Assembly (NCBI GenBank): GCA_951406725.2
Contig: OX597826.1
Coordinates: 63,364,001 to 63,428,000, forward strand
Origin: Octopus vulgaris
Taxonomy: Eukaryota
Direction: 5' to 3'
DNA length: 64,000 bases
This document shows, in pieces, positions 2,421-64,000 of the stretch. The notes beneath the pieces were generated by a model. It did not search any database and was not told the DNA's origin. It was given only the letters and a program-made list of their open reading frames with translations. Both the position numbers and the translations under genes were made by a program. The stretch's first letter is position 1. Every line of letters starts with the position of its first letter.

Positions 2421-3700
2421 ATTTTTATCATATATTCGTAGTAATAATAGTCCTTCTACTATAGTCACAATGCCTGAAACTTAAACGGAACGGATTAGTC
2501 AATTATATCAACTCCAGTGTTGTTCAACTGGTACTTATTTCAATGGCAAGGAAAAAATGAAAGGCAAAGTCGACCTCGGTGGAATTTGAACTCAAAACGT
2601 AAAACCGGAAAAAATGCCGCTAAGCATTTTGTCCGGCTTGCTAACGATTCTGCCACGCCATTGCCATATTTTTAGTAATAATAGTAAGTCTTTCAACAAT
2701 AAGCACAAGACCTAGAATTTTGGGGAGAGCGGGGTGCGCTAGTCGATTACACCGACCAAATGCATGACTGGTACTTATTCTATCGGCTTAGACGGGGTGA
2801 ACAGCAAAGTCGATTTCGGGTGAATTTGAAGTCAGAACTTTAACCAGATGAAATGCCGCTAAAAGTTTTGTTTAGCTAATGATTCTGCCAGCTCGTCGAC
2901 TTCAAGCAGTAACATTAGTAATGGTTTTCAAATTTTGGCACAAGGCCAGCAATTTCAGGAGAGATCTAAATAATTACATTGACACCAACACCGCCACCCC
3001 CACCCCCAGTATTCAACTGAAATTTATTTTATTGACCCCCGAAAGGATGAAAGGCAAAGTCGACCTCGGTGGAATTTGAACTCAAAACGTAAAGACAGGC
3101 GTTGGCACAAGGCCAGCAAATTCGGAGGATGAGGTAAGTCGATTACATTGACTTCCCCAAGTGCTCAACTGGAACTTATTTTATTGACCCCGAAAGAATG
3201 AAAGGCAAAGTCGACCTCGGTGAAATTTGAACTCAGAACGTAAACACACGAAGTAATAATGATAATAATAACTGTCGTTAAAATAGGTTCCAGGCCACAA
3301 ATTCGTAGGAAGATATCAGTCTATTATATTGTCCCCAGTAGTTGGTTGTTACTGTATTTTGTCATACCCCAAAGTTGACTCTGGTGGTGTTTTGAACTCA
3401 GAACGTTGAGGCGTAACAGATATTGCTATGCGTTTTGTCTAACGCTCAAACGATTCTGCCTATCCACCCCTTAACAACCAGAAGGCACCAAAAATAGTCG
3501 TCGTCCAAATAGTCGTTTTAAACTGAATCCTTGCACTCTTTGGTGCAGATTTGAACTTAGACTGTCACAGGACGTAACTAATTACGAAAAAATATATAAA
3601 GAAAAAAAACTAAAAAAAACAATGTTAATGAGATATAATACTTTGGAATATAGTTATAAATCTTGAAGTGAAATATTGAGTCGTTCACTAGGGTCTGATT

Positions 3701-3926
3701 TTATTCAGTAGCAAAGACGAAGATGAGAAATAATATGAAACTAAAGTACATTTGTCCTCCCTTAAAGATGACATTGGGGGAACCATTGTCTTCAGGTCGA
3801 TATTGCTCTGTAATATCTTTACACTTTTCCGGCATCATTGAATAGAAGTAGTCTTGTAAAATTTCAACGAACGTCTTTGGACATCCGATAACTTCAGGCA
3901 AATTGTCAATTACTTTCTTCCACATT
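3701..3926 (-). CDS. Last coding exon (PMWKKVIDNLPEVIGC...DNGS...FSFILFLIFVFATE*), probable GPI-anchor signal
   Basis: Acceptor tcttgtatttacag, phase 2, TAA at 3703-3701. Small-residue NGS site, spacer, then terminal hydrophobic stretch. Total CDS 34+145+134+148+226=687 nt = 228 aa + stop. Confidence 0.9.
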
Positions 3927-4249
3927 CTGTAAATACAAGACATAAACAAATTTACTTTTGTAAAGTCATGACATTATATATTTGCACGTGTTTAAAAAGA
4001 AAAAAAAATATATTCTAACAAACGACTAATGTTAAACAAATAGCAATGGAAGATAAAAATAAAAATCAGTTTTTTTTCGTGCTTACAAGAACTGAAGGTA
4101 AATTGTCTTTTAATACTTACAACTAAGGCATATTAGTACGGTTGTACTTAACCAATATCTAGCATTCCCTGCGGTTCCATAGATGTTGTAAGCGTTTTCT
4201 CCTTGGCTTATCCATGAGTAGAAAGGTAGTTAGTGTAACAAAGGCTAGG

Positions 4250-46269: not shown

Positions 46270-47072
46270 ATACAACTCTTACAAAAATGTCCGGCAATTC
46301 CAACTCTTCTGTCCGACCAGGCTCATCGCTTCATTGAAGCACCTGGTCAGTTTCAAACTTGAACATTTCATGCACAGATCGGTCTCCCACATGACCTCCG
46401 CAGCCACCTTGCGAAGGCCACTCAGGGTCTTCCGTGCAGGACAGAAGCCCCTCCCACCGGCCCTTCCTTTCAATTTTGCCAATTACACTCTGCAATGTCC
46501 CTCCCTTGTGAAAGAGGACCACAAATTCCTCCTCCATCGGCACACCCGCCAAAGGAGCATCGGGACACGCCGGCAGCGTGTCACAAACCGCTGGAGGGTG
46601 GTGTTCCTCTGCTGTGTCCAGCAGGTCCTCCCTTCCTCCCGCAGCCCTCGGGTCCTTCGGTGGGTTGCCAGCCTTTCGCTTTCGTTTTTTCGAGGTTTCC
46701 ACCTCCCGACATCCTCCTCCTTCTCTCCCTCCAATGAGGGAGCAGGAAGTGATGCCTCAATTAACTGCTCCAAGACCCTATTTTGGTCATTGGGGCAGTT
46801 TTTGATGTGGCCGGTTTCTAGGCACAGGTGACATTTGGGGGGGGGGGGGCGTCCCTCGAGCATCACCGGATACCTAGACCCGGCCATCCTCAAAAAATCT
46901 GGGAAAACCAGACTTTCAGCTGATTGGGTCCATAGAGTCAAAACAGCTTTTGCCCCCTCCCAATCAGCCGCTGGTAGCATTTTTACATTGAGCAACTTGG
47001 CACTGCTACCACCCAGACCCCGTCGGATAGAATCCTCTATCCACTCAGGCTCAATTCCGGGTGGCAAACCGC
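46270..47072 (-). mobile_element. Non-LTR retrotransposon ORF1/gag-like fragment with zinc knuckle (Tx1/L1-like)
   Basis: GLPPGIEPEWI...FPDFLRMAGSRYPVMLEGRPPPPKCHLCLETGHIKNCP. GC-rich relative to flanks and frameshifted downstream. Confidence 0.65.
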
Positions 47073-47530
47073 AGAAGTGGGTAGAATTCTTCACATATGA
47101 TGTTGACTTACCTGCTACTGGAATGATTATATCCACAAGGAAGTGGCTCAGTGGATGACATGCCAAACCCCTACTGCTCATTATGGGTCTTAATGGAATA
47201 CCATCCTTGTGAATCTTAGGGAAACCGTACATGACAATCTTAGGGAGACCGTAATTGCCCACAGAAATATAGCGTAATGGTTAAGAGCGCAGGCTACTAA
47301 ACCCAAGATTTCAAGTTCAATACCAGGCAGTGCCTTGAATAAATAATAATAGAAACATCAGCAAAAAATACCTTAGGAGTAAGAACCCAGGGTTGGGTTC
47401 AAAATTCCATTAGGACACCTGATCAAGGCTGGAGAGTAAATCAGCTAAAATGTTAAGGTAACAACAAAGATGAGGACATATATCCATCCAATATAAATGT
47501 ACAAAATTCCTCATCTCTAAAATATAGAAC
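47073..47530. mobile_element. Penelope-like remnant: RT N-terminal fragment (-) abutting an inverted terminal repeat (+)
   Basis: MYGFPKIHKDGIPLRPIMSS...YVKNSTHF is the PLE RT N-terminal signature. 47255-47530 (+) matches 37035-37370 (-). Inverted terminal-repeat geometry is typical of PLEs. Confidence 0.85.
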
Positions 47531-48198: not shown

Positions 48199-49167
48199 CT
48201 ATCCTGTATGAATTTTTCTGTGATTAAATAAATGACCATATTGAGCGAAAGAACTACCACAGATATTACATGGATATGGTTTCTCTCCTGTATGAATTCG
48301 TCTGTGTTTAATTAAGTTATCATTTTGAGAGAAAGAACTACCACAGATATCACAATGATATGGTTTTTCCCCTGTATGAACTCGTTTGTGAGTATTTAAA
48401 TTAGAATTTTGAGAGAATGATTTACCACAGATATCACATTGATATCGTTTTTTACCTGTGTGAGTGTATACGTGCTTAGTTAAGTCACTACTCGAAGAGA
48501 ATGCTTTATGACAAATATCACAGTAATATGGTTTCTCTCCTGTATGAATACGCTTGTGACTGGTAAGGTTGCCCTTTTGATTAAAAGATTTACCACAGAT
48601 ATCACAGCCATATGGTTTCTCTCCTGTATGACAGTATTTATGCACAGTCAAGAGACTCGCAGAAAAGAATGATTTACCACAGATATCACACCGATATCGA
48701 TTCTTACTTGTGTGACTGTATTTGTGGTTAGTCAGCTCACCACTTGAAGGGAATGCTTTGCCACAGATCTCACAGCGATATGGCTTCTCTCCTGTATGGC
48801 TACGCCTATGGATGGTGAGATTACCTTTTTGAGAGAATGATTTACCACAGATATCACAGTGATGTGGCTTCTCTCCTGTATGACTGTATTTGTGTATAGT
48901 TAAAGAACCTTCATAAGAGAACGCTTTACCACAGATATCGCATCGATGTGGTTTCTCATTTGTGTTAATGCATTTGTGTTTAGTTAAATCCCTTCTTCCA
49001 GTGAATGCTTTACCACAAGTATTACAGTGATATGGTTTTACTTCAGCACAAATACGTTTGTGGGCAATGAGGTTAACTTCTCGAGAGAATGACTTTTTAC
49101 AGATATCACAGTGGTATGATGACTTTCCCATTATTTTTGGCATCTCTTCAGAAAAATAAAAATCCAT
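48199..49167 (-). CDS. C2H2 zinc-finger array protein, 11 fingers (first two atypical), intronless CDS
   Basis: Repeated CxxCGKxFx5LxxHxxxH with TGEKPY/H linkers in a 322-aa ORF. Acceptor ctatttttctatttcag places the exon start at 49540. Confidence 0.95.
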   Translation of the reverse strand: MDFYFSEEMPKIMGKSSYHCDICKKSFSREVNLIAHKRICAEVKPYHCNTCGKAFTGRRDLTKHKCINTNEKPHRCDICGKAFSYEGSLTIHKYSHTGEKPHHCDICGKSFSQKGNLTIHRRSHTGEKPYRCEICGKAFPSSGELTNHKYSHTSKNRYRCDICGKSFFSASLLTVHKYCHTGEKPYGCDICGKSFNQKGNLTSHKRIHTGEKPYYCDICHKAFSSSSDLTKHVYTHTGKKRYQCDICGKSFSQNSNLNTHKRVHTGEKPYHCDICGSSFSQNDNLIKHRRIHTGEKPYPCNICGSSFAQYGHLFNHRKIHTG

Positions 49168-59300: not shown

Positions 59301-61173
59301 TTAAGGCGGCGAGCTGGCAGAAACGTTAGCACGCCAGGCGAAATGCGTAGCCACATTTCGTCTGCCGCAACGTTCTGAGTTCAAATTCCGCCGAGGTCGA
59401 CTTTGCCTTTCATCCTTTTGGGGTCAATTAACTAAGTACCAGTTACACACTGGAGTCGATATTATCGACTTAATCCGTCTGTCTGTCCTTGTTTGTCCCC
59501 TCTGTGTTTAGCCCCTTGTGGGTAGTAAAGAAATAATTTAAGAATAACTGGAATAACATTGCTAGATAAAAGAGAACAAAAACTAAATACACACATTTCA
59601 ATATAGCTGACTTTTATCCCTCAATAACCAAAATTTCATTGATGTAGGCTTTAGGTTTTATGAATGCAGACACTGATAACAGTGAGTCGGGTATTAATGC
59701 GATTATGAACTCAAAATTGACATTTCCCTCCGGAGCATAAATATAGCAAGCTATCAAATAGGAACTGCTAAGTTCAGCTATTCAGCTTGTAAGAATTTTG
59801 GCTGTTATATCAGAGTTTGTAATGCTGCAAAGCTGAATGGAAAAGAGAATAAAACAGTTGGTCATTAAAGAATTTATGAGAACTACCCACTAGATGGTAA
59901 TTTGGGCAAAGTTAATAATGTAGTGCTAAAGGAAAAACAAAAACTGAATGAACATTTAAAAACTGAATTTATAAACATACATATTTGTCATTCTTAACTA
60001 AAATTTTGAAAAATAAAATGCACTATAGCTCTGTCAAAATTTTTATAATTCTTGCATGAGAAACTTTCACATATTCAAAACTACCTGGTTGATAGTAGAT
60101 AAGGCACAACCATATAGGATTGGTAACTTCAAATCAAAAATGCAGTGTGACCTTTGAGTAAAAAATTAAGAATTTTGGTTCCAAGCAGTCATGGTTTGAA
60201 CAAAAGAGATATGTGTATTAGGCATATGCAAACCACACACACACACGTAAGCATGCATATATTGATTTTTAAAATATTAAGTAGTACAGTTTGATGAGAA
60301 ACGTTAGCAACATTGTCTGTATGAAATTGAAGATGTTTGGAATATTCTAACAGTCAGAAATAGAAATAAAAATACAAGCTTGAAACAGCTGTTTTAGCAT
60401 GTCACTCATAAAGTTTTTGTTTTGTTTTTTAAAGATTCTCAGTTGGTATGGTCTCAGTTGATAAGAGCCTGGTGGAATGATGTGGAATTCCTTTTCCATA
60501 TCAGCAAAATCAAACAAAAATAATTCTTCATACTTTGCCACAACTTATAAAATTCTTGCATCCAGTCAAATGCAACATTCTTTGTAATTTGCCAATTTTC
60601 ACACAAACTTTTTTCTGTTACTTTTGGTCCACTGCATGTTCCTGTAGCTTTGTTAATTAAAATTATATTCAGCCTTGTGCATAAAATCTGTACTAGTACT
60701 ACTACCTAGTCCTTTTCAGAATTATGTATAAACTTTACAGATACTTAAATCCTTTCTGGAATTGTGCATAGTGTGCATGAACTGCAATTCATCTTCAGAA
60801 TTGTAAATAACCTGCATCAAGAATTTCTTTTTATTTGTGCATAACTTGCCTGAGCATCAAGATCATTTTGGAATTACTGTGTAAGTCTCGCAGAATTGGA
60901 CATAAGCTACACCAACTGTTTCAGAATTTTGCACACCAAGTCCTTTTTTTCTTTCTTTGATATTGTCAGTAACTTGCACTAAGTCCATTTTGGAATTGTG
61001 CATACAACATCAAAAATTTTGGGATTTGTACATGCAAAACCCTCATTATGTCACTTCAAAAATTTTTTATACTAGTATCAATTTTCTGAATTGTGTATAA
61101 CCTGCACCAAGTCTTTCTCAGAATCGTGCATATTAATACCAAGTTTCAAGTTCTTTAGTCTTTAGTCTTTTGC

Positions 61174-63435
61174 TTAATTTGAAAAGTTACCTTCCAATTT
61201 TTTCTTCATTCGTTCATGACCCACATCATCATCATGTTTCCGTTTACTCTGCAAAGTTCTTACATTGCCAGGATCATCATCAGTAGTTATGTTACTTTCC
61301 GATGGCGCTTGGCTTTCCATTATTCTGGCATTGCCAGCCATTTCCTCTTGGCTCTCTACCACATTTATATTACCCTCCCACTCTTTCTTGGTCTCCATTA
61401 TGCTTCTGTCATTACCCCTCTCATCACTATCCATCTCTCCTTGACTCTCCACTACATTTGTGTTGCAAGCTGTCCCTTGATTTTCCACCTCATTTGCATC
61501 ACAGTCAGCCTCTTCCTGACACTCTACTTCATTTGTGACACAAGCAGTCTCTTCTTGACTTTCCACCACATTTGTGTCATTAGCTGTCTCTTCTTGATTC
61601 TTCATAGCACTCATATCACCTGCCGTCTCTTCTTGATTTTTCATTAATATTTTGCCACAAGTCATCTCTTCCTTGCTCTCCACTACTCCTTCATCAATAT
61701 CTGTTACCTCTTTGGTCTCCCATATATTTGTATCATCATATATGTTCTTTTTGCTCTCCTTAGCATTTGTTCCACAATCCCTCCCTTTGCTCTCTCCCAT
61801 ATTTGTGTCATCAGTTATTTCTCCTTTGCTCTTCCTTACATTTGTAGCTTCATAAATTTCCTCTTTGTTTTTTCCAATATTTTTGTCATCATAAATCTCC
61901 TCTTTGCTCTCCTCTACATTTGTGTCTCTGGCCAACAGCTTTCTGTTCTCCACTGCATCCAAGTTATCTGATGTCTTTTGAAACAACATCTCTCTTTCAC
62001 TTTCTTGTTTATACAGCACAAATTGAGTATCATCTTCCAAGTTCTGATTTGGTGGCACAAGTCTTGAGTCACCCTCAGCTTCTTTTTTATTTTGCCTGAA
62101 GGGCACATCACCTTGTTTACTTTGCAAATTGCTTTCACCACCTTGCTCACTCTTCATAAGTGACACATCACCCTCAACACTCTGCACAAGAGACACATCA
62201 TCTTTAGCCTGTCTCTCAAGTGACACATCTCCTTCCCGCCCTTGCCTAACTTGAATGAGTGACACTTCATTTTCAGCTCCCTGCAAGAGTAGTAAATCAT
62301 CTCCAGTCTCATGTGTGCTGTCCCTTTCAGCTTCCTGTTTAGATTGTGCATCTTCATCTTGTTTACTCTGTGAGAAACACACATCCACAGATTTACTTTG
62401 GGAAGAACCAATACCTTCAGAACAGCTATCTATACTTTTTCTCTCCAGTTTTACATTGCACTCTCCATTTTCTATCACATCTGTACATGTCTTATTATTT
62501 ATAACATCTTGCTTACACTCTGAAAGGTCTACATCTTCTACTATGGCTTTGACTTCACACAAAGCCAGCTGCACACCACTCTTAGCAGCAAGCAAGCTAT
62601 TTGAAAGTTCTGTAGTCTGCTGTAGTTTGTAGTCTGCTGTAACCTTCATACTATCCGTGAATTCCATATCTTTCTGATTTTTGTTAGCATAAGTATTAGT
62701 TAAAATATCTTCATTCTCTATTTTCACATCATCAGTATTTCTAACTGAAAGTTTAGAATCAAAACATGCCTTTTCTCCAGTTGCACCCAAGTCTCTATTA
62801 CTTTCCTGGGCATCTAAAACTTTACTTTTACGGTCAATGTTTTCCATTTTCACTTCAGATTGTACTACAGAATCTTCTCTTCCAAAATTACAAACTTCAT
62901 TTAAGTATTCTATTGTATTGATGGTATAGTCTTGTACAGAACACTCAGAAGTCACTTCAATGTTTTCATTCAATACACATGACCCGGATTCTAACAAACC
63001 AGATAATTTAAAAGCTTCACAATCATCTGGTTTGGAAACTTGCAGATTTTGTATACCTTTTGCTATCAATTCTTTGGCCTCAGCAAGTTTTTCTTCAAAT
63101 TCATTCAATAGTTTGACTGTTTGACACTTTTGCTTCATCATCATCATTCGTAATGTTTCCCGGGCCTGATTTGGTCGGATTTCATTGATAAGATGATTGA
63201 GGTTTATGAATAGTAAACGCAGGTCATTCAGTTTTTCTTGCCTATCTGAAGAGTTGGGGTTCCGAATAAGTATGTCTATTAAATCTAGAAAGCACACAAG
63301 AATGGAATGGTTCAGTTTCTTCATTTCCTTTTTACGATTATGGTTTTCAGGATATAACTGTGTAAGTCCTAGGGATTCTAATGTCTGAATGGGTTCATTA
63401 ATGTTGGAAGGTACACCAAATACTGTGTAGTTCTC
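61174..63435 (-). CDS. MED7: Mediator subunit 7-like protein, last exon, with long acidic repetitive C-terminal extension
   Basis: N-terminal ~130 aa match the MED7 family (Y.VFG, LES.G..QLYP, KKEMKKLNHSILVCFLDLIDILIR.P, EKL.DL.LLFINL.HLINE.RP.QARETLR.MM..QK). Poly-T + GCAG acceptor ends at 63436 (phase 0). The true start exon was not found in the window; the track's TTG start lies in the intron. Confidence 0.92.
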   Translation of the reverse strand, partial: ENYTVFGVPSNINEPIQTLESLGLTQLYPENHNRKKEMKKLNHSILVCFLDLIDILIRNPNSSDRQEKLNDLRLLFINLNHLINEIRPNQARETLRMMMMKQKCQTVKLLNEFEEKLAEAKELIAKGIQNLQVSKPDDCEAFKLSGLLESGSCVLNENIEVTSECSVQDYTINTIEYLNEVCNFGREDSVVQSEVKMENIDRKSKVLDAQESNRDLGATGEKACFDSKLSVRNTDDVKIENEDILTNTYANKNQKDMEFTDSMKVTADYKLQQTTELSNSLLAAKSGVQLALCEVKAIVEDVDLSECKQDVINNKTCTDVIENGECNVKLERKSIDSCSEGIGSSQSKSVDVCFSQSKQDEDAQSKQEAERDSTHETGDDLLLLQGAENEVSLIQVRQGREGDVSLERQAKDDVSLVQSVEGDVSLMKSEQGGESNLQSKQGDVPFRQNKKEAEGDSRLVPPNQNLEDDTQFVLYKQESEREMLFQKTSDNLDAVENRKLLARDTNVEESKEEIYDDKNIGKNKEEIYEATNVRKSKGEITDDTNMGESKGRDCGTNAKESKKNIYDDTNIWETKEVTDIDEGVVESKEEMTCGKILMKNQEETAGDMSAMKNQEETANDTNVVESQEETACVTNEVECQEEADCDANEVENQGTACNTNVVESQGEMDSDERGNDRSIMETKKEWEGNINVVESQEEMAGNARIMESQAPSESNITTDDDPGNVRTLQSKRKHDDDVGHERMKKKLEGNFSN

Positions 63436-64000
63436 CTGCAAAAAAAAAAAAAAAAAAACTGCTTGTAAAAATAATTATTTCTATATAGGTACAGGCATGG
63501 CTGTGTGGTTAAGAAGCTCACTTTTGCAACCATATGGTCTCAGGTTCAGTCCCATTGTGCAGAGCCTGCACCATACTTCTGTATCTATTTTGGTATGGGT
63601 CTTTTATGATTGGATTCCCTTCCAAATACCAACCACTCCACTGAATAGGCTGAGTGCTTTCTACATGGCATTCCATATTATGGAAGTATTACATTCAAGA
63701 AAATCATGCATTAACAGAGTTCTGTAGAGTGGTACAGGTTTTCTGATTTTTATGTTCATTGATTTACATCTAATCTAAAGGCAATGGTAATGTCGCGGCA
63801 CAAACATCCAGCACCATATTAGGTGAGATCTCGTGGCAGCTATTGCCATCTCCAAGACTGGAGCGAGACCTCACCTGCATCCATTTGCCATGTGCAAGAT
63901 CACGAGGCTCGCAATGGAGAAAACTATATAAATGGGAAACTGATTCAGATCAGCCTCTTTTGGCACCATAGACAGCAGCATTGGCTGAACACCAACACAG

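Follow-up and report, generated by a model that had tools for sequence, protein, structure and literature searches.

An expressed and apparently undescribed MED7 paralog with a long acidic tail in Octopus vulgaris

The DNA analysed here (hereafter the window) is a stretch of 64,000 nt from contig OX597826.1 of Octopus vulgaris. Its longest open frame, located on the minus strand at 61174-63435, encodes 753 amino acids and a stop codon without interruption. This frame is coding exon 2 of a long MED7 paralog: its translation matches residues 38-790 of P0010 (CAI9732019.1, O. vulgaris) at 100% identity and it is covered by RNA contigs. The exon starts directly behind a polypyrimidine tract followed by an AG (63436-63459, minus strand). 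This splice acceptor, whose junction is present in contigs of runs X2 and X8, ends a phase-0 intron of 1857 nt, of which the part at 63436-64000 (minus strand) lies in the window. Coding exon 1, located 1.86 kb upstream of exon 2 and outside the window (G000:C13:63429293-63429419), provides 16 nt of UTR and codons 1-37, giving a protein of 790 aa. The paralog also has its own 5'-UTR exon, outside the window as well, with its 3' end at G000:C13:63434559 and a GT donor. At the other end, the 3' UTR extends at least over 60332-61173 (minus strand) according to the contigs. Hence, an earlier note on this DNA was right to report an uninterrupted MED7 frame, but this frame is one exon and not the whole gene, 37 more codons lying outside the window.

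Two other frames of the minus strand were observed in the window. The first one (48202-49167, 322 aa) encodes tandem C2H2 zinc fingers, a class expanded in octopus, and contains about nine copies of an 84-nt repeat. The second one (46486-47280, 265 codons) resembles, by eye, a fragment of retrotransposon reverse transcriptase.

Residues 2-124 of the paralog match the Pfam Med7 profile (E 1.4e-36, 126.9 bits for a cut-off of 25.8) and human MED7 chains from the PDB match it with an E-value of 7e-32. Like the other members of this family (PF05983; human chain in PDB 7EMF/7ENA), which form the hinge/knob/connector subunit of the Mediator middle module, it has a proline-rich stretch and three helices. 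Over residues 1-40, it shows 58% identity to the canonical octopus copy, its first proline motif being unchanged and its second one two residues shorter; this segment includes the proline-rich region corresponding to the putative MED31-binding Med7N. The part of the core encoded by exon 2 (residues 38-170; 63037-63435, minus strand) comprises a beta-hairpin, two bundle helices and a long connector helix, as indicated by the Pfam profile, the PDB chains and the predicted helices. In the structure model, the hairpin spans residues 40-47 and the helices residues 71-95, 102-123 and 125-167. The bundle and connector helices, i.e. the MED21-binding Med7C, are predicted to be present, in a model of modest confidence for this region and of low confidence for the whole protein (mean pLDDT 40.5, pTM 0.20, pLDDT under 50 for 578 of the 790 residues). 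Its best structural matches are MED7 chains (E 9e-8, TM about 0.3), the first five being mammalian chains with 157-166 modelled residues out of the 233 of the human protein. A predicted complex between residues 50-175 of the core and three MED21 exon peptides scored 0.21 for a mark of 0.34, which speaks neither for nor against binding.

Identity of the core to its canonical counterpart is 56%, and reaches 66% in the bundle. At 86 positions, at least 90% of 92 canonical MED7s agree on the residue; the paralog keeps 59 of these positions and has changed the other 27, mostly to residues that none of the 92 sequences has. The changes include residues of the helix kink and of the beta-hairpin. For instance, the motif EIRPNQARE (residues 122-130; 63157-63183, minus strand), located at the kink between helices 2 and 3 according to the alignment and the predicted structure, carries the substitutions pointed out in the earlier note: the human sequence is EYRPHQARE and most molluscs have EFRPHQARE. 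Neither the F to I nor the H to N change was seen in the 92 canonical MED7s, and both flank the kink at residue 124. The R, P, Q and A of the motif are retained, as are most conserved residues of the bundle. Judged from the sequence, the 27 changed positions would be as consistent with a lost function as with a new one. The paralog and the octopus canonical copy have in common a rare M at canonical position 137 (1 of the 92 sequences). Downstream of the core, the last 49 residues of the canonical protein and their conserved motif are undetectable in the paralog (profile score of 2.2 bits vs 61.7 for the canonical copy). A candidate remnant of this motif at residues 200-218 was rejected, with 12% identity and no profile match. 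The paralog thus has neither the aromatic-R-P-H hinge, nor the C-terminal D-x-x-M-C, nor the length of 205-240 aa of canonical bilaterian MED7s.

In place of this conserved C-terminal part, the frame runs without a stop from the MED7 domain into an acidic tail of 620 aa (residues 171-790; 61177-63036, minus strand), which represents 78% of the protein. As previously proposed, this tail is rich in D and E (22.7%, with 11.8% K+R and a net charge of -68) and probably disordered, FoldIndex being negative in 11 out of 12 blocks of fifty residues counted from residue 201 and pLDDT below 50 over most of the tail. Its length had been correctly estimated, whereas the length of the protein, said to be about three times the usual one, is 3.6 times that of the canonical octopus MED7 (790 vs 219 aa). 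Since about 49 of the 620 residues stand in for the normal C-terminus, the net gain is 571 aa. The KRKH-x8-MKKK ending described earlier is also present (residues 768-783; 61198-61245, minus strand). It is a bipartite NLS-like motif by its sequence, with basic residues conserved among the full-length orthologs of three species.

The tail is single-copy: protein and DNA searches of the genome found no second copy of it, and it does not match the 3' region of the canonical gene. An atlas search with the tail gave no match, and no homolog was found beyond the octopus cluster among the best 150 of 798 matches from 1.84 billion representatives. Its last third contains degenerate 39-nt (13-aa) tandem repeats (61434-61923, minus strand, in two blocks at 61434-61597 and 61707-61923) and its middle shows a 30-nt period (61950-62400, minus strand). 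Moreover, the O. bimaculoides ortholog has a further run of short units, accounting for about 70 extra residues. These data show that at least part of the growth of the tail took place by tandem duplication within it. At 62606-62641 of the window, a 17-nt tandem duplication resulted in a net insertion of 15 nt (KLQQT) that is found in O. vulgaris only; this change is compound and keeps the frame. A faint 39-nt period was also noticed in the 3' UTR (60600-61170, minus strand; 0.34 vs a background of 0.29); it possibly corresponds to decayed repeats.

A search of the genome with the Pfam Med7 profile gave two MED7 matches among the nine candidates scored. One is the paralog and the other is a canonical MED7 of 219 aa (G000:C13:65033963-65034340), located on the same contig and strand, 1.6 Mb from the paralog. 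The earlier note hesitated between a lineage-specific paralog and an ortholog that had gained a disordered region, and proposed to look for a second, canonical MED7 in the genome. The presence of this copy supports the former and contradicts the latter. Long acidic MED7 tails are known in some nematodes (715 and 393 aa), which could suggest that the long gene is the sole octopus MED7. However, the genome contains a canonical spliced MED7, identical in three Octopus species, making this reading extremely improbable. Both genes have the same layout of three exons: each has an upstream 5'-UTR exon, an acceptor lying just a few bases before the start codon, and a phase-0 intron after the second proline stretch. 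Since both introns are at the positions found in the parent, the paralog is a DNA-level duplicate and not a retrocopy; a retrogene is therefore ruled out. The O. vulgaris models of the canonical protein (P0012 and P0133, 275 and 195 aa) have N-termini unlike those of the 219-aa form of other species, which are likely mis-modelled starts.

RNA contigs from runs without tissue labels were aligned to exon 2 (X1, X2, X6 and X4) and to exon 1 (X2, X6, X8 and X4). Exon 1 is covered exactly by contigs from two of the four runs, X2 (877 nt) and X8 (4434 nt). On one side, these contigs contain the first bases of exon 2 and, on the other side, a mismatch-free sequence from 5.1 kb upstream, lying behind a GT donor. 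The X2 contig runs 737 nt into exon 2, up to about residue 282, i.e. beyond the MED7 domain and beyond the position of the canonical stop, and a second X2 contig reaches from the last part of the tail through the stop into the UTR. Furthermore, X6 contigs tile positions 1797-2739, 2790-4110 and 4081-4334 of L012, which amounts to almost the whole of exon 2 plus several hundred UTR bases, and the unique bins of the intron are almost empty of contigs. The X8 contig has 4276 letters 3' of exon 1; from this length, we infer that it would include the whole of exon 2 and about 2 kb of UTR. No splice joint inside exon 2 was found among the alignments listed. Since the contigs joining exon 1 to exon 2 extend into the tail, the locus is transcribed with its tail. 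Two eventualities raised by the earlier note, an unexpressed locus and transcripts splicing out of the tail soon after the MED7 domain, are thus not what the contigs show.

These contigs also bear on a 1126-aa O. vulgaris model (P0007, CAI9732018.1) according to which the real product would be a fusion of FAXDC2 with the MED7 paralog. The FAXDC2 gene (G000:C13:63450463-63460936; L005, L006) is on the same strand, about 21 kb upstream of the paralog. However, both exon 1 contigs lead to the separate 5'-UTR exon 5.1 kb upstream and not to FAXDC2, and RefSeq has separate proteins in two other species. A fusion product is therefore very unlikely and CAI9732018.1 is probably a mis-joined model.

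No contig from X6 and X4 was found on exon 1 of the paralog, only the canonical transcript being found there. X4 contains a spliced contig of the canonical MED7 and, among the pieces listed, a single 238-nt piece of the paralog. Among 24 runs, 11 hold part of the stretch (share of 0.05-0.69) and 13 runs with the same label hold next to none of it. This patchy coverage would fit a restricted expression, keeping in mind that contigs show presence and not absence and that their depth cannot rank genes. Upstream of the 5'-UTR exon (L024:1560-2000, minus strand), short words resembling E2F, MYB and CHR-like elements were noticed by eye; such words are common in AT-rich DNA.

Orthologs of the long paralog were searched among proteins of 414-1318 aa. 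This search retained 3 of the 7994 proteins scored and missed a 715-aa nematode MED7; broken copies are invisible to such a protein search. Besides O. vulgaris itself (790 aa), the paralog is found in O. sinensis (790 aa), in O. bimaculoides (863 aa) and as a 551-aa piece. No further shorter piece was found among 120 of 155 matches, the best one having 56% identity. A search by name found no paralog in Argonauta or in cephalopods further away, a result that is not evidence of its absence. Among the best 150 of 798 profile matches, 4 of the 149 others exceed 400 aa. Furthermore, 22 named non-cephalopod molluscs have a full-length MED7 of 217-222 aa (19 from a search covering lengths up to 315 aa and three from a separate search). 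Long tails are thus not general in molluscs, contrary to another eventuality considered in the earlier note.

In a core-only tree of 29 sequences, the four long copies separate as one clade (100/100). The stem of this clade amounts to about 1.2 changes per site, vs 0.06 for cephalopod-type canonical copies. The clade joins these copies with values that are not firm (83/77), another tree being similar (89/85). Trees in which the paralog groups only with Octopus, or with both Octopus and Argonauta, are not rejected (p-AU 0.09 and 0.21), so that more than one date of the duplication within cephalopods fits the data. Overall, the paralog likely arose within cephalopods by DNA-level duplication.

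Three Octopus species have one and the same canonical MED7 sequence, and 209 of its 219 residues are identical in Argonauta; for FAXDC2, O. sinensis and O. bimaculoides share 343 of 351 residues. When O. vulgaris is compared with O. bimaculoides, the paralog has 155 identical residues out of 170 in the core (91%) and 494 out of 564 in the tail (88%). Comparison with P0004 gives 76 out of 96 (79%) and 289 out of 401 (72%), respectively. The core, which has no indels among orthologs, changes nearly as fast as the tail. The earlier note proposed to measure dN/dS on the tail, for which crude ratios from small, mixed samples were obtained: about 0.3 (7 vs 5 changes, among 12 listed of many) and about 0.8 (29 base changes resulting in 22 changed residues, two individuals being mixed). 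These ratios suggest that the sequence of the tail is weakly constrained.

Fast change throughout the protein, a crude ratio reaching about 0.8 and a number of repeats that varies between species, as seen from the extra units of O. bimaculoides, could indicate a relaxed duplicate heading to a pseudogene. Such a gene would be transcribed, its tail would come from read-through and repeat slippage, and little in it would matter. However, the frame is open in all four lineages found, down to 72% of tail identity, and the splice sites are used. Moreover, among the X6 contig alignments listed, the indels of the coding sequence (24, 3 and 15 nt) are in-frame, whereas those of the UTR (1, 1 and 7 nt) are frame-breaking. 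In simulations, a 570-codon frame remained stop-free in 20 of 2000 cases (1%) at 6% random change and in 0 of 2000 at 12%. The open frames, the indels and the simulations suggest that the frame is under selection, and we consider a relaxed duplicate quite improbable. With a parent in the genome, a spliced transcript and a frame kept across species, the gene has the properties of an expressed protein-coding paralog.

Other long acidic MED7s are found as database models in Panagrolaimus sp. ES5 (715 aa), Bursaphelenchus okinawaensis (393 aa) and Macrostomum lignano (329 aa). In these nematodes and this flatworm, as in the octopus paralog, the core is followed by an acidic tail (28-35% D+E) and the C-terminal motif is undetected. 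Since the core alone aligns with the octopus paralog, without any match between tails, these proteins likely have an independent origin. [quoted passage not shown] Unlike the octopus paralog, the latter has retained the C-terminal motif and contains an insertion at an internal position. It carries an F to M change at the kink position, where the octopus paralog has I or M, and an L to M change at position 78.

Several Mediator subunits are known to have paralogs, i.e. MED12/12L, MED13/13L, the CDK8 pair, Med1, Med27, fish Med30 and Candida Med2 (accessible part of PMC2475620). These likewise allow alternative Mediator assemblies, and no animal Med7 duplicate figures among them in that part of the article. 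Unlike these subunits, MED7 is an essential scaffold, and its octopus copy differs by a large added region that is disordered, instead of by minor changes. Furthermore, testis-biased duplicates of the basal transcription machinery have been described, such as the tTAFs of Drosophila and the expansions of Pol II and TFIIB in stalk-eyed flies (PMC4824122, available sections, in which Mediator has no occurrence). Like them, the octopus paralog is a lineage-specific and fast-evolving copy of a normally single-copy core component whose parent is conserved. However, duplicates of MED4, MED10, MED21 and MED31 were not found in octopus.

Exon-level searches, which may miss divergent copies, found one locus each for MED31, MED4 and MED10 and one real locus for MED21, one of two MED21 motif matches being due to chance. 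Exon 1 of MED21 (L019:1496-1545; G000:C6:131253011 onwards) has an apparent GC donor, exons 2-4 being in L021 and L022. Since the partners are apparently single-copy, there would be a single slot for which both MED7s compete. It appears moderately probable that this expressed and intact MED7 duplicate is an interchangeable variant subunit, which would replace MED7 in part of the Mediator complexes, probably those of a restricted type of cells, for instance germ cells. A germline role is suggested by its fast rate and by analogy with the tTAFs and the duplicates of stalk-eyed flies (PMC4824122, in the sections available). The retained N-terminal proline-rich stretch and the three helices may still bind MED31 and MED21, and the last residues of the tail may bring the protein into the nucleus. 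The hinge region is reported to contact the Pol II CTD, MED26 and the disordered region of MED13 (PMC6130968, PMC10104585 and 10.1101/2024.07.01.601608, accessible parts). The changes in the beta-hairpin and the kink would retune these contacts, and the tail would be a large flexible polyanion at the end of the connector helix, which may alter recruitment or condensate behaviour. More tentatively, octopods may build another Mediator, specific to a cell type (likely of the germline), in which the paralog with its rewired hinge would take the place of the essential hinge subunit, and its acidic disordered arm of about 600 residues would alter how the complex meets Pol II, MED26 and the kinase module. 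Such a natural variant of the core of Mediator would have an independent parallel in stalk-eyed flies.

The paralog could also have an opposite role, as a decoy or poison subunit. It would bind MED21 and MED31, but its altered hinge and hairpin and its bulky tail would prevent engagement of Pol II or MED26 and hence damp Mediator activity, for instance when transcription shuts down in gametogenesis. Its changes do flank the helix kink and the hairpin. Moreover, hinge mutations block the association of Mediator with Pol II without destabilising the core (PMC6130968 and PMC12985170, in the parts available), and the hinge is the seat of the MED13 disordered region, which competes with MED26 (10.1101/2024.07.01.601608, likewise in part). 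However, conservation of the R, P, Q and A of the motif and of most conserved bundle residues argues against such a decoy, which we regard as unlikely. Alternatively, the paralog may act independently of Mediator, the acidic tail with its NLS-like motif being the working part and the core a decaying remnant or a scaffold. Like an acidic chaperone, the tail would then bind, for example, histones or the basic proteins of sperm. The share of the tail in the protein, its strong negative charge, the maintenance of the frame and of the terminal basic motif, and the loss of conserved positions in the core are all consistent with this role. Nevertheless, after an initial burst, the rate of change of the core is a little lower than that of the tail, without indels among the orthologs, and the partner-binding segments of both its ends are retained, which makes a role outside Mediator rather improbable.

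Databases label the paralog protein as 'uncharacterized' or 'MED7-like'. Literature searches, in which coverage of subscription papers is thin, found nothing on MED7 with octopus or on the identifiers of the paralog, and no description of an animal MED7 paralog. Likewise, its gene identifiers gave no match in full-text literature or in the searched part of the supplements of PMC11202624, PMC9699675 and PMC9712504. The octopus gene is thus a real, expressed and apparently undescribed paralog of a core Mediator subunit. Variants of animal Mediator are known mainly for the kinase module and for peripheral subunits, whereas MED7 is an essential scaffold whose hinge decides the binding of Pol II, MED26 and the kinase module. 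An expressed paralog with changes at invariant positions of the hinge and hairpin, beside a parent without a single residue change among three species, offers a natural comparison for studying the function of the hinge and of the unresolved C-terminal part, and bears on whether tissue-specific core Mediators exist. It also shows that a disordered region of 570 residues can join a core transcription subunit and stay in frame.
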